Positions 8,818 to 58,151 of a stretch of DNA of 64,000 bases are shown here, piece after piece. This stretch comes from a virus (lineage: Duplodnaviria; Caudoviricetes): IMG/VR virus record IMGVR_UViG_3300029286_000011. One strand, written 5' to 3'. Position numbers and translations under genes: made by a program. Under the pieces are notes generated by a model. It was not told where the DNA came from and did not search any database. It was given only the letters and a program-made list of their open reading frames with translations. Each line of letters starts with the position of its first letter. Within the stretch, counting starts at the first letter, position 1.

Positions 8818-8843
8818 AGATTTAATTAGCGCTAATTACATCT
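8818..8843. repeat. 26-bp intergenic palindrome, copy 1 (one mismatch)
   Basis: AGATTTAATTAGCGCTAATTACATCT between the fibre gene stop (8855) and the radical SAM RBS. Confidence 0.95.
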
Positions 8844-19954: not shown

Positions 19955-19972
19955 GTAATTAGCGCTAATTAC
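19955..19972. repeat. Intergenic palindrome, copy 2 (18-bp perfect core)
   Basis: GTAATTAGCGCTAATTAC between the baseplate J stop and the RBS of the 19936 gene. Confidence 0.92.
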
Positions 19973-33848: not shown

Positions 33849-33876
33849 GAGATGTAATTAGCGCTAATTACATCTC
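33849..33876. repeat. Intergenic palindrome, copy 3 (28-bp perfect)
   Basis: GAGATGTAATTAGCGCTAATTACATCTC between the sheath stop and the tube RBS. Confidence 0.97.
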
Positions 33877-38347: not shown

Positions 38348-38363
38348 ATTGCGACCTGTGATA

Positions 38364-38403
38364 GCTAAAAGAAACGACAGGGGCCGAAGGCACCCCTGTC
38401 GTT
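38364..38403 (-). terminator. Intrinsic terminator closing the 38427-39281 accessory module
   Basis: Stem AACGACAGGGG/CCCCTGTCGTT (38373-38403) followed by TCTTTTAG on the minus strand. Confidence 0.7.
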
Positions 38404-39370: not shown

Positions 39371-40282
39371 TCAGGCATAGCCAGATCCAAGAGATCCTCG
39401 GAATAGCTTGGCATTAAGCTCGACCTTTTTGTAGCGAACAAAGTCGTGCCATTCTGACTTGAGGGCAGAGGCCAGCTGAATATACTCTCCGTTCTTGTCC
39501 TTGTCATTGATGACAACACCGGAGGCACTGGCACCAAGCTTATTGCGCATATAGTGGTGTACGGCAATCATCAGAAGCTCAGCAACAATGGCCTTAAGCC
39601 AATGTTCTCTGAACGGAAAGTTCTTGCAGTTGTAACGGGCAATCGGCGGGGGCTCTTCATTCCAATATCGAATAGGTCCTAGAATAGCCGACACGATCTC
39701 GTTGTCATCGAACTCAACGTCTTGCAGAAGATCGTTCTCAACACCTGTGTCCCGCATCCGTATACGAATCTCTGACAATGACGGCGGTCCTACTCGTTGT
39801 TGAATATCACCGAAGAGTGACTCTTCAATCGACAGCAAACCACTGTTCAAGACAACAATATCACCGGCAGCATTCTTGACGGCCACATTGACCCTATAAA
39901 TACCAGCGATGTCGTAGATGGCCCTAGGTATGGCAAAACTGATCTGTCCGGAAGAAGCAGCTGAGAACTCACCAGTTGCAGCGATTATGCGACCACCTGC
40001 GCAATCGGCAATTCGCACATCAACACTTGCCGTATCGGCATCTTCCGATTCGCTAATAGAATCGGACACTGTAATCAAGCTAGACAGATCGACAGGTGCA
40101 CCGCTCTTGTCACGTACTAGCCAGGTAACAGTGCTAGCTACGCCTTTATCACCAAGGACAACGGGCCGTTTTGTGTTGATAGGGCAGCCTTCGTGCGTTG
40201 GCACATTAGGCTGTATCGTAGACGACAGCGGAAGACCTGCATCATCAGACGGCTGCGTTACCTGTGTACCTGTGACGGGCAT
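39371..40282 (-). CDS. Head-tail adaptor/neck protein
   Basis: 303 aa. Ig/BppU-like N-terminus and 'SEIRIRMRDTGVENDLLQDVEFDDNEI...YWNEEPP...NFPFR' C-terminal adaptor-like domain. Confidence 0.6.
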   Translation of the reverse strand: MPVTGTQVTQPSDDAGLPLSSTIQPNVPTHEGCPINTKRPVVLGDKGVASTVTWLVRDKSGAPVDLSSLITVSDSISESEDADTASVDVRIADCAGGRIIAATGEFSAASSGQISFAIPRAIYDIAGIYRVNVAVKNAAGDIVVLNSGLLSIEESLFGDIQQRVGPPSLSEIRIRMRDTGVENDLLQDVEFDDNEIVSAILGPIRYWNEEPPPIARYNCKNFPFREHWLKAIVAELLMIAVHHYMRNKLGASASGVVINDKDKNGEYIQLASALKSEWHDFVRYKKVELNAKLFRGSLGSGYA

Positions 40283-42755: not shown

Positions 42756-43517
42756 TTAGCACCTCGTATGGGCTAGGCCGTTTTTTCCGGCCAGGTAGTG
42801 GTATTGGATGCGGGCCGCGGCCAGGGCGTAGGTGTAGAGGGCCACGCCGAAGATCCGGCCATCGTAATAGGACGTGGCCCCGGCGCCATTGGCCGCAGCG
42901 CCGATTTTCAGCGGACACGTCGCGTTGTAGATCGCGGCGATCGCACCAGCAGCAACCTTCGCGGGCGTTTGCAATACACCATTCACATAGAGCGCGAGGG
43001 TCGTACCGTTCCACGTAAACGCAACGTGGCTCCACTCGCCAACCGTCAGGCTGGCGGTGCTGTTGTACCGCTTGACGTTACTCCCGTAGAGCCCATCAGC
43101 GGAAATGGTCACTTGAAGTTTCGGCGGATTCGACGTCTCGACCTGCATCAGCCAGGACCGCTGATTGATGCTTGAATCGTATTGTCCGCAGATCGACCGA
43201 TTGAAGGTGCTGCCCTGCCTCACCCAGGCTTCCACGGTCATCGCCGAGGATACAGCGATCGCGGCGGAATCGGCGATCGAGACGCATTGGCTCGACCCGT
43301 TGAACGTCGGTGCGCCGGAAGCACTACGGTTGATCGGTCCCGGCATGACGCCCAGAGTTGGCGAACCCACATATGTGCCAGCATTGTTGGTCCCGCGCGC
43401 GGCCAGCATCAGATCCGCAGCCGCTATTCCACTGACCTCGTCGAGCATCCATGCAGCGACCGGCAGACCGCCGTAGGCGGCCTCGCTCAAGATCACGTTG
43501 CGGTAGTCTAGATACAT
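42756..43517 (-). CDS. LamG/concanavalin-A-like jellyroll protein
   Basis: VAAWMLDE, FNGSSQCVSI, MTVEAWV, GEWSHVAFTWNGTTLALYVNG, LKIG, YYDGRIFGVALYTYAL are the Laminin_G_3 signature. Confidence 0.85.
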   Translation of the reverse strand: MYLDYRNVILSEAAYGGLPVAAWMLDEVSGIAAADLMLAARGTNNAGTYVGSPTLGVMPGPINRSASGAPTFNGSSQCVSIADSAAIAVSSAMTVEAWVRQGSTFNRSICGQYDSSINQRSWLMQVETSNPPKLQVTISADGLYGSNVKRYNSTASLTVGEWSHVAFTWNGTTLALYVNGVLQTPAKVAAGAIAAIYNATCPLKIGAAANGAGATSYYDGRIFGVALYTYALAAARIQYHYLAGKNGLAHTRC

Positions 43518-43548
43518 CTGCTGCCTCGTTGTGACGCTATCTCAACAC

Positions 43549-43554
43549 ATTATA
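43549..43554 (-). promoter_or_regulatory. Perfect -10 hexamer TATAAT upstream of the LamG cassette
   Basis: TATAAT about 30 nt upstream of ATG 43517, just after a terminator. The -35 match is poor (TTTAGC). Confidence 0.5.
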
Positions 43555-43574
43555 AGCAATAACCCCTGATAGCT

Positions 43575-43602
43575 AAAGAAAAGGCCATGCGACTGCATGG
43601 CC
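43575..43602 (-). terminator. Intrinsic terminator
   Basis: GGCCATGC-AGTC-GCATGGCC then TTTTCTTT on the minus strand. Confidence 0.75.
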
Positions 43603-43708
43603 CCTTCTACACTTGTGACTCATCCATGAGACTAGCCTCCATGCTAAAACAAATGACGTACAGGTAGGACAGGAGCGTATTAGGTTCCGTACGCCTAGTC
43701 TCCTACCT

Positions 43709-43718
43709 ATTATGCCAC
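43709..43718 (-). promoter_or_regulatory. Putative extended -10 promoter GTGGCATAAT (second copy)
   Basis: Identical to 39341-39350; points into a short non-coding segment ending at the 43575 terminator. Confidence 0.5.
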
Positions 43719-43979
43719 CTAAACGGTCTGCCGTTCAGGGGCCGTCGTGTGACCGTACTGCTCCAGCAGCGCGGTCAGCGCCTGTCGCGACGCAAGCTGC
43801 AGGCTCCGAGTCTCCTCGAAGACCTCCGGCTCGCTCATCGCCAGATCGGCCAGCTCGTCGATGTTGATGACAAGCTGAGTGACCTTCACGACGACGTCGT
43901 TCGGGACGTCGTCACAAAGTGCCACCTGCCAGTGCCTATGATCGGCGTCTGGCATTTCGCAGTAAACGTCGAGTAGCAT
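43719..43979 (-). CDS. Hypothetical protein, 86 aa
   Basis: True start likely ATG 43979 (MLLDVYCEM) with AGGAG RBS and an ACTAGCC motif upstream. Confidence 0.65.
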   Translation of the reverse strand: MLLDVYCEMPDADHRHWQVALCDDVPNDVVVKVTQLVINIDELADLAMSEPEVFEETRSLQLASRQALTALLEQYGHTTAPERQTV

Positions 43980-44101
43980 CGTGTTTTCTCCTATTACGAG
44001 GCTAGTTATGCGACACGAAAACGCTGCGTCCCCCATATTCTTTCGGAGGACGCAGCGTATTGGAAGAGAATTTCGCCAGAAAAGTACACAATCTGACGAA
44101 A

Positions 44102-44572
44102 TTATTCTTTGCCAGCTGCCGATTTGGCCCGCTTTGTGATCACGGACCACGCAAAATTGGACAATGCTTTTCCTATGTGCCAGCAAACGAATACCGACAC
44201 CAGTAAGGCACCTAGAGTGCATAGCGAATCGTCACGATTCGAGCCCTCGTTACGCACTACGGCTCGCGTACGAAGGCCGTCCTCCTCTGTTAGAGCCTTG
44301 ACGCTAGAGAAGCGTCCGTTCAGCTCTTGGTTGTTGCTGCTGACGTCAGTAGACAAGTTGTCTAACTTGGCCGATAGGGTGACCAGTCGAGCATCTAGCC
44401 CGCTCATGCGGGCTGCCAAAACGTTGGCCTCATCGCTGATCTTGCCCATCAGCACGTTCTGACCGGACACGACTTGCCCGGTTGTGCGGCCAATGTAGCT
44501 TGCCAGCAGCACAGAGAACAACGCAACAACAACGAGAATTACGGTGGTGTGAATAGCGGACTTGTCATTCAT
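44102..44572 (-). CDS. TM-coiled coil-TM membrane protein
   Basis: 156 aa with hydrophobic N- and C-terminal helices, a heptad-like middle and a basic tail. Confidence 0.7.
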   Translation of the reverse strand: MNDKSAIHTTVILVVVALFSVLLASYIGRTTGQVVSGQNVLMGKISDEANVLAARMSGLDARLVTLSAKLDNLSTDVSSNNQELNGRFSSVKALTEEDGLRTRAVVRNEGSNRDDSLCTLGALLVSVFVCWHIGKALSNFAWSVITKRAKSAAGKE

Positions 44573-44608
44573 CTTGAATCCCCTTGGCTAGTTAGGGCTA
44601 GAGCAAAC

Positions 44609-45184
44609 TCACGAACGTACGGTCAGCTTCTTAATAAGCTGCCATATCTTACGCGACAAGAACTTTAGTGCGTGCCAGCTAACTAGCACGCCGATAAGCA
44701 CGGCAACAGTGAACCATGGAATCTCTTCCGTGCAGGTAACGACATGGTATCTCAGATTGCTTATCGAATCCTTCTGAGACACCAGTCGGTCCAGAATCCG
44801 GTAGTCATGCTCATGAGCCTCCTTCGAAAGAGTCTCGACCGATTTCTGCAGCTGCATGATCATGTCGACCGGAGGTCGTTGATCACGGAGAAGCTTTTTC
44901 ATCTCCTCGTGATCCTCGGCGTATACGCGCGCCGAGTTCTTCAGAAGGTTCTCTAATGCCGTCAACCGGCCTAGGACACTGTACACCTCGTCCAGCACTT
45001 TTTGATTATCGCTGGTAGGTGCTTTGACCGTGTCCGACGGCGCAAACACAGCCGGTGTGATGCAGTCCACGGCGCGATGTTCGCTCTGCTTGAGCCTTTC
45101 AGGCTCACTAGGTGCCAGGGCGTAAAAGCCCACGGCCACCAGTGCCATGACCAACACGACGAACAAGATCTTTTGAGTCTTCAT
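44609..45184 (-). CDS. TM-coiled coil-TM membrane protein
   Basis: Start ATG 45184 (MKTQKILF) with AAGGA RBS; same architecture as its neighbours. Confidence 0.7.
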   Translation of the reverse strand: MKTQKILFVVLVMALVAVGFYALAPSEPERLKQSEHRAVDCITPAVFAPSDTVKAPTSDNQKVLDEVYSVLGRLTALENLLKNSARVYAEDHEEMKKLLRDQRPPVDMIMQLQKSVETLSKEAHEHDYRILDRLVSQKDSISNLRYHVVTCTEEIPWFTVAVLIGVLVSWHALKFLSRKIWQLIKKLTVRS

Positions 45185-45226
45185 GAAACATTCCTTTTGG
45201 CTAGTGACGTGATGACAAAACATACG

Positions 45227-45616
45227 TTACGCTGATTGCTTTGCTGCCAACTCTGCTCGTGCCGCCTTCCAGGCACGAATTATGTTGCGTATGCACAGGT
45301 ATACGCCCATAGCAGATAGTATCAACACGGCCGTATTCCATGTCGATTCCTGTACGATCGTGCGTGTATACACATGATCCGATGTCGCCTCCTTAGAGGC
45401 ATTGGATTGTATCTCGCGCCACTTGGCGGCTGTGCTGTGTGTATCTGCCTGCAGCGTTGTAAGCTGCATTCGCACCTCGTTGATGACCTTGTCTCGCTGA
45501 CGTTCAGCGGACATGATCGAATTCAGTGTACTGGTGTTCGACGACACCAACAGCAGTGTACACAAACTCATGGAGACAGTTGCCGTCATGCAGACGGACA
45601 TGTATTTGCTAATCAT
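45227..45616 (-). CDS. TM-coiled coil-TM membrane protein
   Basis: 129 aa, AGGAG RBS, same architecture. Confidence 0.7.
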   Translation of the reverse strand: MISKYMSVCMTATVSMSLCTLLLVSSNTSTLNSIMSAERQRDKVINEVRMQLTTLQADTHSTAAKWREIQSNASKEATSDHVYTRTIVQESTWNTAVLILSAMGVYLCIRNIIRAWKAARAELAAKQSA

Positions 45617-45649
45617 GACATCTCCTAAGGCTAGTTAGGTGGTGAAAAA

Positions 45650-45772
45650 CTACTGGCTGAGGGACAGCAGGGCCTGCGCCCCGCAGTAAACCGTCCCGGC
45701 CAGAATCAGAAGCTTGACCACCGACATGGCGATCACAGACACCACGCTATCTACGTGAGCTGACTTACGCAT
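45650..45772 (-). CDS. 40-aa single-TM small protein (not in ORF track)
   Basis: MRKSAHVDSVVSVIAMSVVKLLILAGTVYCGAQALLSLSQ*. AAGGAG RBS overlapping the upstream stop. Confidence 0.6.
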   Translation of the reverse strand: MRKSAHVDSVVSVIAMSVVKLLILAGTVYCGAQALLSLSQ

Positions 45773-45774
45773 GT

Positions 45775-46764
45775 TTACTCCTTAAAGAGGGCGGGTAGTA
45801 ACTGAACGGCTAGCTCCCGGCTGAGATGCAGCCGGAAGGGTTCGTTGCTGATGATCCCATGTTGAGGGCCGCGCCCAGGGATCTCAGCGACAGTTTCACG
45901 CAGGTCGATACCGTCGTGTAGGGCGGTGAATATGACCTGCTTGGTAGACAGTCGGGATGCAATTGCACCCTTTGTGCTGATGACGACCAGCACATCTGCA
46001 TTCAGGTCGACAGCCGTGGCCTGTAGAATGTGGCTGTCGAACTTGTCGCTGACGTTGGATACGTCCAGCACGGCCCATCGGCGGTCGTACACCGTCGAGA
46101 TGCGCATGCTGTCCAACACGTCTAACGTGTCCCGCACCACAACGTCGTGGTTCAGCGCCATGACATTCAGACGCTTCTCAGCTTCGCGGCCAACCAACAT
46201 GTCCACAAACAGCTGGTAGGCTTCCTGATGGCCGCGCGCATCTTCGCGCTGCAATACGGCCGTCGACCTAACGAATAGCTGGCCGATATCTGAGAAGAGA
46301 TGCAGCTTGGCCGCATAAGACGGCCCGTCCAGCCGCATCGCATCCTCAACCAAATCGACGTAGGTGAGGCCTACGGCGCGCAGTGCTGCAAACAGTCCAT
46401 CGCCGTCGGCGTGAGCGATGATCACATCTTTGTCGCCGATGCAGCCGATATCGATCAGCTGGGCACAGGCTAGAGCGTTCTTACGGGTGACACACAACGC
46501 GTCTACTAACGGCCGTGCCCGTATTAGCTCGTATACGTCATCGTACAACTCGCTGCCGGTATCTGGTTTGTGATGGTCACGTACCATCACCTTGTGCTTC
46601 ATCGCTAGGTCTGAAATCAGATCATGGCACACCACTGGCGACAGATCGGCTATCAGAACCTTGGAGGCACCCTGGCAGCATCGGATCAGTACCGACGATA
46701 TCTGTTCGATTTCAGACGGCTGGACGAACATCGCCAGCGTCTTACGAAGCATTAACGAAAACAT
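45775..46764 (-). CDS. DHH-family phosphoesterase-like protein with rearranged motif order
   Basis: VLIADL, VRDHHK, then IIAHADGDGL. TAGGAG RBS. Confidence 0.55.
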   Translation of the reverse strand: MFSLMLRKTLAMFVQPSEIEQISSVLIRCCQGASKVLIADLSPVVCHDLISDLAMKHKVMVRDHHKPDTGSELYDDVYELIRARPLVDALCVTRKNALACAQLIDIGCIGDKDVIIAHADGDGLFAALRAVGLTYVDLVEDAMRLDGPSYAAKLHLFSDIGQLFVRSTAVLQREDARGHQEAYQLFVDMLVGREAEKRLNVMALNHDVVVRDTLDVLDSMRISTVYDRRWAVLDVSNVSDKFDSHILQATAVDLNADVLVVISTKGAIASRLSTKQVIFTALHDGIDLRETVAEIPGRGPQHGIISNEPFRLHLSRELAVQLLPALFKE

Positions 46765-46795
46765 GAAAAACTCCTAGGCTAGTGTTGCGATACAT

Positions 46796-46836
46796 AAAAA
46801 AGAAAGACCGACCGGCGTTTGCCAAGTCGGTCTTTC
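46796..46836 (-). terminator. Intrinsic terminator
   Basis: 11-bp stem GAAAGACCGAC/GTCGGTCTTTC followed by TTTTTT on the minus strand. Confidence 0.8.
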
Positions 46837-46857
46837 CGTGGCGACCTCTGAGTCGGC

Positions 46858-47691
46858 CTACAAGTCGGAATACTTATAGTCGGCTAAGAACGCCAACGCC
46901 GCCTCGCGGCGTTGCGTAGTCGGTTCGTACAGGAACCGGTGCGCCGGACTATCCGACGAAGTATTATGGTTCGACCAGAACGTCCTCAGGTCGAATCCAG
47001 ACTCGGCCATAATGGCTATGTAGTCGTCTAGCCACAAGCCTGCACGCCAGCAGGCTAGCGCATGTGACGATACGCCGTCGCCGGTGTAAATGGCCGGCAT
47101 CATGATGCCTCCATCTTGCTGACGAATAGCCAGCAAAGGGAAGGCCGAAAACGACGTCATGGCCGTCAGAAGAATCTGACAGAGCCCGGCTGCTGGCAAT
47201 GTTGTAGACGCCGGCAGCTGCGCTCCAATGGCCCACAGATCGTTCTGAAGACGGGCCATTGGGTTGTCCTCGAACTTGACCTCGTCGGTTTCCGGGTCAA
47301 GTAGCATGGCATGGCCGTCCGTGACCACCGCATGTACCTGATTGCCAATCAGGCACACCTGTCGCTCTTCCGCCGTCATGGCAGCCAGCTTGGCCATCAG
47401 CTGCTCATGATCATCGAGCCTGTCATGCGACGGCACGGACCCCGTAAGGTCCGTCAGCGGAATGTCCAGACAGGACCAGTTGTTCTGATCCATTGTACGG
47501 ACAACGTCCAGTGAACGACTGCGCATGACAGCCCTGGACAAAGCTGTCAGCGCTTTTGGCAGCATGGTCCTTGGCGCTTGCTGCTGGCTTCTTTCCAAGC
47601 CAACGAGCTTCTCCACCAGCACCGGCATATTGACGATGCTGATGTTCCAGGGCCACCCAAACGGGCGTTCCTTCGCAAGCTTCATACTCAT
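46858..47691 (-). CDS. Hypothetical protein
   Basis: 277 aa, AAAGGA RBS, no recognisable family. Confidence 0.65.
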   Translation of the reverse strand: MSMKLAKERPFGWPWNISIVNMPVLVEKLVGLERSQQQAPRTMLPKALTALSRAVMRSRSLDVVRTMDQNNWSCLDIPLTDLTGSVPSHDRLDDHEQLMAKLAAMTAEERQVCLIGNQVHAVVTDGHAMLLDPETDEVKFEDNPMARLQNDLWAIGAQLPASTTLPAAGLCQILLTAMTSFSAFPLLAIRQQDGGIMMPAIYTGDGVSSHALACWRAGLWLDDYIAIMAESGFDLRTFWSNHNTSSDSPAHRFLYEPTTQRREAALAFLADYKYSDL

Positions 47692-47715
47692 TCCTTTACA
47701 CTAGTGAGGGCTAGT

Positions 47716-47760
47716 AAAAATGGCCTCCGGACGGATCACTAGCCTAATCCGCCGGAGGCC
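47716..47760 (-). terminator. Long hairpin plus U-tract (terminator-like) with GGCTAG in the loop
   Basis: Minus strand GGCCTCCGG-CGGAT-TAGGCTAGTG-ATCCG-T-CCGGAGGCC-ATTTTT. Confidence 0.7.
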
Positions 47761-48020
47761 CCACACCACAAAACTCAATAATAGCGCCCTGTTCTGGCTC
47801 CTATGGCCAGCACTCAGGGTCTGTTACCACGGAGTAAAACTGCAAGTTAAGAACGAAGCTAACACACTGGATACCTGTAGGGCAGGCCGGTCAACCGCAA
47901 GCGGTCCACATTTATCGGCGTTCGTTGCCCTAACAGGCTCCAGTGCCAGCGGCAGGAGCCACCGCCGTTGCGACCCCTGTGTAACTTTTTTGCCGAATTA
48001 CACAGAGGTAAGCGCTCCTG
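47761..48020. ncRNA. Candidate structured non-coding RNA (continues into the 47716-47760 hairpin)
   Basis: About 300 nt with no credible ORF and five further hairpins (47787-47819, 47874-47886, 47894-47905, 47936-47960, 47977-48005). Confidence 0.4.
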
Positions 48021-48022
48021 AA

Positions 48023-48319
48023 CTACACTCCGTCGTTCCACCAGGCCTGCTGGCTCGGTAGCCACGTGGCCTCCTCGCGCCACGTCCGTCCACCGTTGAC
48101 GTTATCACCGCCCCTGGCCACAAAGTGCGCCGACTTTGACGGGTCGATCACGCGAACAAGGTCCGGACCCGAAACGAATCCGTTGTCGCGGACTCCTTCG
48201 GTGACGCAGTTGATGCAGCAGAACACTTGACCCCAGCAGGCACCGCTGCCGAAGTAGGAGCGGCCGTAGATGTGCCCTAACTCCCGCGTCAGGACTACCT
48301 CTTGTACGTTCGTTGACAT
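48023..48319 (-). CDS. Hypothetical protein, 98 aa
   Basis: Start ATG 48319 (MSTNVQ) with AAAGGA RBS and ACTAGCC motif. Confidence 0.6.
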   Translation of the reverse strand: MSTNVQEVVLTRELGHIYGRSYFGSGACWGQVFCCINCVTEGVRDNGFVSGPDLVRVIDPSKSAHFVARGGDNVNGGRTWREEATWLPSQQAWWNDGV

Positions 48320-48357
48320 CGCAAAATTCCTTTGGCTAGTGACTATAAACACAAAAC

Positions 48358-48556
48358 AGACCGAAAGGTCTGATAATTGGCGCCTGCCGCAAGTAGGGAG
48401 ACCTACGGCAGGTTCGTTGCACAGGTACCGTAGCAGGCCTGGAGTTATCCAAGCCTCCACAGCGTAAAAGCAACGAAGGACTGCAATGCCGGACTGCAGT
48501 CATAAGATGGCAGCGACCTCAGAACTATGTCCGGTCGCCGCGTATTAAGGCGGTAC
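48358..48556. ncRNA. Candidate structured RNA or leader
   Basis: Hairpins at 48358-48371, 48383-48412, 48435-48456 (enclosed by an 8-bp helix 48413-48420/48470-48477), 48479-48501 and 48513-48538. Confidence 0.45.
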
Positions 48557-48588
48557 TAAGCTAAAGTCGATATGCCAAGGAGATTGGA

Positions 48589-48614
48589 AGATGTAATTAG
48601 CGCTAATTACATCT
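48589..48614. repeat. Intergenic palindrome, copy 4 (26-bp perfect)
   Basis: AGATGTAATTAGCGCTAATTACATCT between the capsid-operon terminator and the accessory region. Confidence 0.97.
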
Positions 48615-48691
48615 CTGATCCGTGGCAGCGACGATAGCTAGTTAGCGCCTCCAATATAGTATGACGCGTTTTGGGCCTTTATTTACCAATG

Positions 48692-48729
48692 AAAAAAGCC
48701 GGCAGGTGCCTCATGCACCCACCGGCTTT
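48692..48729 (-). terminator. Intrinsic terminator of the capsid operon
   Basis: AAAGCCGG..GGTGC/GCACC..CCGGCTTT followed by TTTC on the minus strand, just after the 48748 gene. Confidence 0.8.
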
Positions 48730-48747
48730 GCCAACCTTCCGTGGTTG

Positions 48748-49101
48748 TCAGACGCGGTATTCCATCTCCGAATCGGTCAGGCTCGTAAGCCAGCACGGTG
48801 CGGCGACAGCCAGCGTGTTGTTATTCAGCACGAGCATCTGGGACTGATCCAGAGTAGCATCGTACAGAATAGGAGCAGGAGTCGACACAAGCTCAAGCCA
48901 CCCAGCTTCGAGGGCCTCGAAGAACTTCTGCACGCCACGGGCGCCGAAGATCCGACCAATGGTATCGACGACATGGCCGCTAATCGAGACTTCCTCGTTG
49001 TTGTCCAGCTCAGCCCCGTGGGGCGGCACAATGCTAATCTTGCGCTTCGAGCCGGCAACATTGCGAATGGTGGACACCAAACAGCTGATATCAACAGCCA
49101 T
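48748..49101 (-). CDS. Small virion-associated protein
   Basis: 117 aa, CACGGAGG RBS, last gene of the capsid operon. Confidence 0.65.
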   Translation of the reverse strand: MAVDISCLVSTIRNVAGSKRKISIVPPHGAELDNNEEVSISGHVVDTIGRIFGARGVQKFFEALEAGWLELVSTPAPILYDATLDQSQMLVLNNNTLAVAAPCWLTSLTDSEMEYRV

Positions 49102-58125: not shown

Positions 58126-58151
58126 AGATGTAATTAGCGCTAATTAAATCT
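58126..58151. repeat. Intergenic palindrome, copy 5 (one mismatch)
   Basis: AGATGTAATTAGCGCTAATTAAATCT, the exact reverse complement of copy 1. Fills the whole gap between the TAG (58150-58152) and the ATG (58123-58125). Confidence 0.95.

Follow-up and report, generated by a model that had tools for sequence, protein, structure and literature searches.

We characterized a short sequence element, built around the heptamer ACTAGCC, that precedes seven genes of an uncultured lake phage. The window analyzed comprises 64,000 nucleotides (bases 70258-134257 of the 185,248-bp IMG/VR virus record IMGVR_UViG_3300029286_000011), and positions below are those of the window unless stated otherwise. After recovery of 24.2 kb missing from this record, the circular genome was rebuilt at 209,449 bp in coding orientation; the genome-wide counts of ACTAGCC and of the palindrome described below refer to this sequence, including the recovered segment. 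Other assemblies carry the same phage as a 209.6-kb contig; the source lake samples include ERZ27250635 and SRR8536341/2. The genome has a GC content of 0.53 and is approximately 87% coding, with nearly all genes on the minus strand of the window, which holds tail and baseplate genes, the head module and part of the phage RNA polymerase (RNAP). Between the head and tail modules lies a 5.2-kb block (43517-48748), hereafter the island, which consists of the seven element-bearing genes and the 40-codon g40:

g98, 48023-48319, minus strand, island gene
g275, 46858-47685, minus strand, island gene
g329, 45775-46764, minus strand, island gene
g40, 45650-45772, minus strand, adjoins g329; lacks the element, alone among the island genes
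g129, 45227-45616, minus strand, island gene
g191, 44609-45184, minus strand, island gene
g156, 44102-44572, minus strand, island gene
g86, 43719-43979, minus strand, island gene

The leader element and its seven sites

The window contains 15 copies of ACTAGCC against 7.2 expected, and the seven copies on the minus strand are located at 44000, 44586, 45199, 45629, 46777, 47709 and 48334. As reported in the preliminary description of this region, all seven lie 12-20 nt before a gene start; each is next to a Shine-Dalgarno (SD) sequence of the AGGA type. Registered on ACTAG, the conserved sequence extends over approximately 22 nt and comprises TTT at positions -15 to -13, C at -4, T at -2 and ACTAGCC itself. 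All seven elements are co-oriented with their genes:

44000-44021, minus strand, g86 leader element; TTT, 8 nt, C-N-T-N, ACTAGCC; SD 11 nt downstream; start 43979; 28.8 bits
44586-44607, minus strand, g156 leader element; second CTAGCC core 10 nt upstream in the spacer (CTAGCCCTAACTAGCC); start 44572; 27.2 bits
45199-45220, minus strand, g191 leader element; without an upstream terminator hairpin; start 45184; 30.5 bits
45629-45650, minus strand, g129 leader element; T-run shifted by 1 nt; start 45616; 28.6 bits
46777-46798, minus strand, g329 leader element; directly 3' of a terminator hairpin; start 46764; 28.0 bits
47699-47720, minus strand, g275 leader element; in-register core ACTAGTG at 47699-47705, extra ACTAGCC at 47709-47715; likely start 47685; 24.5 bits
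48334-48355, minus strand, g98 leader element; directly after a small hairpin and T-run (48357-48372); start 48319; first island gene; 24.2 bits

The T-rich run mentioned earlier upstream of most copies is held in register. TTT at -15 to -13 is exact at six of the seven sites and shifted by 1 nt at the seventh, against a background frequency of 0.015, and the T-runs read GTTTTCG, GTTTGCT and GTTTTGT. Both C(-4) and T(-2) are found at six of the seven sites. A stem-loop lies directly upstream of the element at four sites and is lacking at the other three; at these hairpin-free sites TTT is in register in all cases (P ~3e-6), with P ~1e-3 for each of C(-4) and T(-2). Since the register is kept where there is no hairpin, the T-run belongs to the element. 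The SD starts 1-4 nt after the heptamer at six sites; in g86 this distance is 11 nt. Around the motif, which is mostly predicted to be unpaired, no common RNA secondary structure was found across the seven sites, and a search of Rfam gave no match to a known RNA family.

The g275 leader called for two corrections. The ACTAGCC at 47709, initially taken as the equivalent of the other copies, is an extra one that lies 10 nt upstream of the in-register core ACTAGTG (47699-47705), and position 47685 is a more likely start of g275 than 47691, as the SD spacing is then 6 nt instead of 0 and an external gene call agrees. The g156 leader is doubled in the same manner (CTAGCCCT[A/C]ACTAG), so that both leaders have two CTAG cores in direct repeat, 10 nt (one helical turn) apart. 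Comparison of the gene starts at 49101, 50630, 51266, 33827 and 36685 with those of the island also revealed two SD dialects, (C)ACGGAGG in head and some tail genes, and (A)AAGGA or TAGGAG in the island genes.

Genome-wide, ACTAGCC is present in 17 coding-strand and 17 antisense copies. Seven of the 17 coding-strand copies fall within one 4.3-kb stretch (P ~1e-6, corrected for the choice of window), and against an intergenic Markov background the seven-copy cluster has P ~2e-12, which confirms that the positional regularity is beyond chance. In an unbiased ranking of all heptamers located 6-45 nt 5' of gene starts, ACTAGCC comes out on top among the words that derive neither from the SD nor from a palindrome described below. 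The bipartite pattern of a T-run, 9-13 nt and [AC]ACTAG[CT][CG] is found in the whole genome at these seven loci only. With a weight matrix spanning -17 to +8, the seven sites scored 24-30 bits and the best of all other genome positions, on either strand, 12.8 bits; the matrix detected no weaker copies outside the seven sites on either strand of the whole genome. Because of this gap the element forms a closed class of seven. Intergenic ACTAGCC outside the island is limited to one or two copies, for a chance expectation of 1.6.

The element is therefore a real and statistically solid leader signal, a closed class that is private to an island of orphan genes, and in this respect the earlier proposal of a private regulon is supported. 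Most probably it serves as an expression switch dedicated to this insert. A lack of enrichment upstream of genes across the genome had been named as evidence against that proposal; the motif is indeed absent elsewhere, but this absence defines its privacy and refutes nothing.

A further intergenic ACTAGCC was noted in a segment absent from the IMG/VR record (L140:15836-15842), where a 160-aa gene has its ATG 26 nt downstream. This copy has the T at -2, lacks the in-register T-run and is within the chance expectation; it may be either a chance occurrence or a decayed eighth member.

A lineage-specific island between the head and tail modules

On its upstream side the island is bordered, in order, by the strong terminator of the head operon, a copy of the palindrome, a structured non-coding RNA stretch of approximately 200 nt and a small hairpin. 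At the downstream boundary, a non-coding trailer is followed by a strong terminator, TTTAGCTATCA and a TATAAT box (43549-43554), just after which the tail genes resume. Inside the island, terminator hairpins precede g98, g275, g329 and g86, dividing it into the units g98, g275, g329-g40-g129-g191-g156 and g86. Four elements (those of g86, g329, g275 and g98) thus directly follow a terminator, and not two as first counted. The non-coding features are:

48695-48729, minus strand, strong terminator that ends the head operon, upstream boundary of the island
48591-48612, no strand assigned, palindrome copy (22 bp, core TAATTAGCGCTAATTA), approximately 270 nt upstream of g98 and followed by the structured non-coding stretch of approximately 200 nt
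47716-47760, minus strand, terminator hairpin before g275; 10-nt loop UAGGCUAGUG with an antisense heptamer at 47738-47744; T-tail is the g275 T-run
46799-46840, minus strand, terminator hairpin and T-tract before g329
44021-44058, minus strand, strong terminator hairpin of 15 bp; T-tail is the T-run of the g86 element
43567-43717, minus strand, island trailer; TGGCATAAT at 43709-43717, 5' hairpin, single-stranded stretch, terminator at 43583-43604, TTTAGCTATCA at 43567-43577

The T-tails of the four hairpins are at the same time the T-runs of their elements, and at these four sites nothing but the element is conserved in the 24-29 nt that separate the terminator stem from the SD. The trailer begins with TGGCATAAT, an extended -10-like box located directly after the g86 stop codon, and its single-stranded stretch carries an antisense copy, GAGGCUAGU (heptamer at 43631-43637), that overlaps a GGAGG and a mini-open reading frame (ORF) of 6 codons. 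The layout of the trailer resembles that of a small RNA (sRNA), with GGAGGCUAGU in the single-stranded part and a fold z-score of -2.1. We further observed two hairpin-rich non-coding stretches on the minus strand (47716-48022, approximately 300 nt, and 48373-48590, approximately 200 nt), which are unusual for a genome of this coding density.

The two antisense heptamers, in the loop of the g275 terminator and in the trailer, are the only intergenic copies of GGCTAGT (in the coding sense) in the 209-kb genome. For such a pair to fall within the 1.4 kb of non-coding DNA of the island, P is ~3e-3, a post hoc value. The loop copy is complementary to the g329 leader over 10 nt and the trailer copy to the g86 leader over 9 nt. 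When unconstrained duplex energies were computed against either antisense RNA, the island leaders ranked 13th to 147th of 205 initiation regions.

Three related phages (L133-L135), with head proteins 35-65% identical to those of the phage described here, share its head genes up to a 117-aa protein (48748-49101) and again resemble it from a 303-aa gene (39371-40282) onward, and between these shared blocks each relative carries entirely different genes. The flanking head and tail genes have counterparts in the three relatives examined and the island genes have none; the ACTAGCC leaders and the palindrome are likewise absent from these phages. The island thus represents an insertion specific to this lineage, in a variable slot that separates the head module from the tail module. 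Further assemblies that carry the island are 100% identical, with 0 differences over 18 kb. Megablast against cultured phages returned nothing, and two flanking proteins led to no locus with conserved gene order in viral contigs. Among the matches listed for the bipartite ACTAGCC pattern in viral contigs, there were only single chance matches per contig.

The island proteins are mutually unrelated, except that g156 and g191 match weakly in their C-terminal membrane segments. This rules out a recent duplication of genes together with their leaders, and argues that the common leader is maintained by selection and is no relic of duplication. Searches of Pfam and PHROGs with the island proteins yielded a single match, a weak PHROG hit of unassigned function for g191 (E 0.0012); they recognized no helix-turn-helix or other DNA-binding domain, and no RNA-binding protein or nuclease. 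Neither g329 nor g191 has a relative among 5.8 billion protein clusters. There is no recombinase among the island proteins or the called genes on either side, and no integrase in the flanking 20 kb.

The family of g275 is uncharacterized and has 13 representatives at approximately 30% identity, g275 included. Two homologues that were looked up (loci L143 and L144) are located on short contigs without the motif, beside a phage-type integrase gene or a DUF1580 gene. DUF1580 is found mainly in Planctomycetes, and the neighborhood fits a Planctomycetota host and a mobile-element origin. We also considered g275 as the regulator of the island and rejected it, as its AlphaFold model (pLDDT 74.5) has no fold match in the PDB and the contigs of its homologues lack the motif.

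Promoter and RNA-level readings of the element

Three roles had been put forward in the preliminary description: a promoter element for a phage RNAP, a translational operator and a relic of cassette-like gene capture. The first is now favored, the second is its principal rival, and the third is partly supported. We tentatively read the element as a compact, island-specific promoter plus leader cassette that acts at the DNA level, with transcription starting at or just after ACTAGCC. Transcription initiation by the element, the position of the start and the polymerase that reads it are all things we infer from sequence features. The T-run, C(-4) and T(-2) would serve as upstream contacts and ACTAGCC as the start-proximal core, with initiation within or just 3' of the heptamer, so that each mRNA would have a leader of 12-20 nt containing little beyond the SD. 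The putative reader is the phage's own multisubunit RNAP, or a polymerase redirected by a putative phage factor. The resulting layout would be terminator, promoter, SD and orphan gene, with terminator T-tails doubling as the T-run, and would allow a block inserted between the head and tail operons to be expressed on its own schedule, by a logic as in the stem-loop promoter cassettes discussed below.

Several observations favor a promoter. The conserved fixed register reaches 15 nt upstream of the heptamer, which is typical of a phage promoter of 20-23 bp. Co-orientation with the genes is strict, and at the four terminator sites nothing else is conserved between the stem and the SD. Only g40, which adjoins g329, has no element among the island genes. 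The lack of a common RNA fold around the motif points in the same direction, as does the insulation of the island by strong terminators on both sides, combined with a depletion of sigma-70-like sites: a consensus scan of the block found one where 3.5 are expected, and none at the elements. The phage encodes a multisubunit RNAP (PF00562, the beta-like module, in a 2206-aa ORF at genome positions 138306-144899, just outside the window). Its RNAP ORFs are this one, for beta/beta'N, and one of 1804 aa for beta'C, with an intein. A domain search detected no sigma-70-family domain (Sigma70_r2) in the phage. That the phage has its own sigma-less RNAP lends weight to the promoter reading, as related enzymes use short start-proximal motifs. 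The promoters of jumbo-phage multisubunit RNAPs are short and overlap the start site (PMC7598289), and the early class of 201phi2-1 has only six sites, all before hypothetical proteins (PMC7598289, PMC11512511).

Two other kinds of promoter were considered and discarded. A sigma-70 promoter is ruled out, since the aligned profile has no -35 or -10 hexamers and the consensus scan is below chance. Three sites read TCACTA, as do T7 and T3 promoters, and a T7-like promoter was rejected because a search of the phage for a T7-like RNAP (PF00940) gave no match and the register of the T-run does not fit; nor is such an enzyme encoded in the 24 kb missing from the IMG/VR record, where all ORFs are <430 aa.

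A number of points weigh against the promoter reading. Terminators with a start codon 20-50 nt downstream are common throughout the genome without ACTAGCC, and read-through or attenuation seems normal in this phage, which weakens, without removing, the argument that a gene behind a terminator needs its own promoter. A pure promoter accounts neither for the near-constant gap of 1-4 nt to the SD nor for the confinement of the two antisense copies to the island. The early promoters described for jumbo phages are AT-rich, which the core is not, and a temporal promoter class limited to one 5-kb block would be unusual. In addition, the nearest relatives, at 35-53% protein identity, are too distant for footprinting.

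The gap to the SD and the antisense copies lend themselves to an RNA-level operator, which we consider a serious, somewhat less likely rival. ACUAGCC, 1-4 nt 5' of the SD at six of the seven sites and mostly predicted unpaired, would then be a linear single-stranded binding site, recognized either by a phage or island protein (a RegA/RegB-like translational repressor or endonuclease) or by the two island RNAs with GGCUAGU; occupancy would block 30S binding and silence all seven genes together. There is precedent in T4 RegA and RegB, which shut off early mRNAs at or beside the SD (PMC3014915), and in the start-associated sequences (SAS) of mycobacteriophages, which were proposed to act in translation initiation (PMC3203893). 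The confinement of both intergenic GGCTAGT copies to the island speaks for such an operator, one being displayed in a 10-nt terminator loop that matches the g329 leader and the other in the sRNA-like trailer that matches the g86 leader. The supporting statistic is post hoc, however, and the island leaders do not stand out by duplex energy. Moreover, the trailer RNA has no complementarity to the T-run, C(-4) and T(-2), and that of the loop is only partial; the island has no recognizable RNA-binding protein or nuclease to act as partner, and the leaders have no counterpart in Rfam. The preliminary description had argued that the short distance to the SD favors the RNA level, which is a weak argument, as a start at or after ACTAGCC gives ordinary leaders of 12-20 nt.

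Carried further, the RNA-level operator would make the island a self-contained post-transcriptional regulon, in which ACUAGCC seed-matches allow the two GGCUAGU-bearing island RNAs to switch the seven genes off or on; this we consider unlikely. One candidate antisense RNA would be the 3' end of the g98 transcript, with its terminator loop at 47738-47744, and the other the sRNA-like trailer (43567-43717). Such a regulon would consist of phage genes, with several targets controlled by antisense RNA that the phage itself encodes. The promoter and RNA-operator models are not mutually exclusive, since ACUAGCC as the first transcribed bases would tag the 5' end of every island mRNA.

Two other explanations rank below both the promoter and the RNA operator. 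The element resembles the stoperators of L5-type phages (PMC9283540) in being asymmetric, in having one orientation relative to transcription and in occupying short intergenic spaces, and a monomeric repressor or activator bound there could act on transcription passing each of these spaces. The direct repeats of CTAG at one helical turn in the g156 and g275 leaders, and the inverted copies in the same block, would suit a DNA site of this kind. We nevertheless regard it as improbable: the island proteins contain no DNA-binding domain recognized by Pfam or PHROGs, g275, the only one modeled, has no fold match, and there is no sign of a temperate lifestyle in the parts of the phage examined. Known stoperators are moreover spread over the genome and also serve as promoter operators, whereas the present element is confined to 5 kb and locked to the SD. 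We give still less credence to a recombination scar or cassette junction without regulatory role, left by piecemeal capture of orphan genes into the head-tail slot. The lineage-specific content of the island, the different genes in the slot of each of the three relatives and the position of the element at the 5' edge of every independent cistron agree with it, and stem-loop promoter cassettes are thought to mediate such shuffling (PMC4122927). Yet the identity among sites, 7-10 nt, is below the length for homologous recombination, no integrase or recombinase is found nearby, and the hairpins are unlike the integron attC architecture. Selection for expression is suggested by the constant relation to the SD and by a 22-nt profile that is closed and rich in information, and strains from several samples are identical over 18 kb, with no ongoing shuffling visible. 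Of the proposal of cassette capture, then, the lineage-specific insertion in a variable slot stands; the conserved sequence is too short for recombination and no recombinase was found around the island.

Known phage systems and other intergenic signals

The element adds a further variant to the cassette and start-associated signals already known in phages. Closest in layout and genomic setting are the promoter early and promoter middle stem-loops (PeSL/PmSL) of T4-like phages (Arbiol 2010, PMC2839356; Comeau 2014, PMC4122927). In PeSLs a stem-loop, promoter, SD and start codon are placed in series before orphan genes; they occur in hyperplastic regions and are rare in structural operons (PMC2839356, PMC4122927). 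The orphan genes of the island similarly sit in a variable region between conserved modules. PeSL promoters, however, are of the sigma-70 type (-35, N17, -10) or the MotA type, and the island element has neither a sigma-70 nor a Mot box. PeSL modules measure 50-70 nt, long enough to recombine, whereas the conserved part in the island is 22 nt; a stem-loop accompanies only four of the seven island sites, and neither recombination products nor variants were seen. As the defining sigma-70 or MotA promoter is absent, the island element is not a PeSL.

In formal properties, the closest system is that of the SAS and extended SAS (ESAS) of Cluster K mycobacteriophages (Pope 2011, PMC3203893). SAS are asymmetric and occur in one orientation, a few nucleotides ahead of the start codons of some non-structural genes, which belong to unrelated families; approximately half have an inverted repeat directly upstream, the rare reverse copies are not tied to gene starts, and the sequence is absent elsewhere (PMC3203893). 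Their function is still putative (PMC12699233). The seven co-oriented island sites at 12-20 nt before starts, with none before other genes, follow the same pattern. The SAS (GGGATAGGAGCCC) nevertheless contains the SD/AGGAG core, whereas ACTAGCC lies 5' of a separate SD and is unrelated in sequence to the SAS consensus. SAS number 11-19 copies over half a genome and are kept across a phage cluster; the ACTAGCC element has seven copies in one 5-kb island, is missing from its three relatives and, unlike SAS, has a fixed T-run 11 nt upstream.

The promoters of jumbo-phage RNAPs share with the element that they are short, phage-private words repeated in intergenic regions, with a small early class before hypothetical proteins; the late motifs are T-3ATG+1 in phiKZ and A-11ACA-N6-TA/G+1 in AR9, and early motifs are AT-rich and located near -10 (PMC7598289, PMC11512511). 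The presence of a multisubunit RNAP and the absence of a detected sigma-70-family domain are further points of likeness. The phage described here differs in apparently having a single RNAP set and not two, in the confinement of the motif class to the island, and in that its start sites are predicted only. Cluster A stoperators are asymmetric 13-mers in short intergenic spaces, with >20 sites genome-wide and a known immunity repressor in a temperate phage (PMC9283540); their orientation is locked to transcription as well, but the island sites are not spread over the genome and the island offers no repressor candidate. RegA and RegB sites are determinants in linear, unstructured RNA; they coincide with or adjoin the SD or AUG in many early mRNAs and serve the coordinated post-transcriptional shut-off of these (PMC3014915). 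RegA sites differ from the island element in being A/U-rich and poorly conserved, RegB cuts inside GGAG, and no homologue of either was detected among the island proteins. Both stoperators and RegA/RegB targets are functional analogies only. An integron attC cassette was rejected, as the hairpins differ in sequence, the T-runs are not GTTRRRY (RYYYAAC core) and the flanking 20 kb contain no integrase.

According to the preliminary description, no such arrangement precedes structural genes. This is true of ACTAGCC, but different SD-proximal signals do exist in the genome, namely a 22-bp palindrome and TTTAGCTATCA. The perfect palindrome (16-mer core GATGTAATTAGCGCTAATTACATC) is present in the full genome in 14 exact copies and one with a single mismatch, of which those in the window are located at 8823-8838, 19956-19971, 33855-33870, 48594-48609 and 58131-58146. 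Most copies lie 5-20 nt before an SD. The copy at 58146 directly adjoins an ATG (start 58125) that lacks an SD, pointing to a transcript with no leader or a very short one. No exact copy was found in viral contigs, and metagenome contigs gave three single, unrelated copies. The second signal, a terminator followed by TTT(C/T)TTTAGCTATC(A), has approximately five occurrences; sites are found in the window at 43567-43577 and 38361-38371, in the genome at 154991 and 18439, and in two of the relatives (L134:18709 and L135:19163). Phages with a protein identity of only approximately 45% still have it, in L135 ahead of the orthologue of the 301-aa gene of the window; in both phages the start codon lies 12-23 nt downstream without an SD. 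This combination of terminator and word looks like a core, clade-wide terminator-restart signal.

Approximately 29 coding-strand intergenic terminators, consisting of a hairpin and a T-run, have the next start codon 4-103 nt downstream, mostly without a promoter-like word (for example 51291 in the window, and 104829, 97341, 89406 and 79663 outside it). Many share the tail TTTCTTTA-NN-TATC, and the terminators of this phage probably act as attenuators. The palindrome (TAATTAGC/GC...), TTTAGCTATCA and ACTAGCC have a core YTAGC in common. We rejected YTAGC as a general initiator, since masking of the known instances leaves CTAG and TAGC with an enrichment of only 1.6-1.8-fold upstream of genes, a test that is confounded by TAG stop codons. 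Outside the window, an array with a 35-nt period (genome 749-2070, units AGTAAYCA-N9-GACAACAKCA-N9) has one unit that contains TTAGCGCT of the palindrome. Tandem interspaced guide RNA (TIGR) targeting was considered for this array and dismissed, as none of its guides matches the leaders or ACTAGCC.

How blocks of orphan genes in large uncultured phages are expressed is a wider question, and the present case is an unusually clean one: a closed-class signal of high information content marks exactly one such block, in a phage with its own RNAP and at least two further intergenic signals. If the element is a promoter, it would offer a handle on the promoter grammar of a new RNAP-encoding phage clade, probably infecting Planctomycetota, and would constitute a compact orthogonal expression part. 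An RNA operator would instead be a second independent example beside the mycobacteriophage SAS, with candidate trans-acting partners. On either reading, the eight island genes are flagged as a co-regulated unit.

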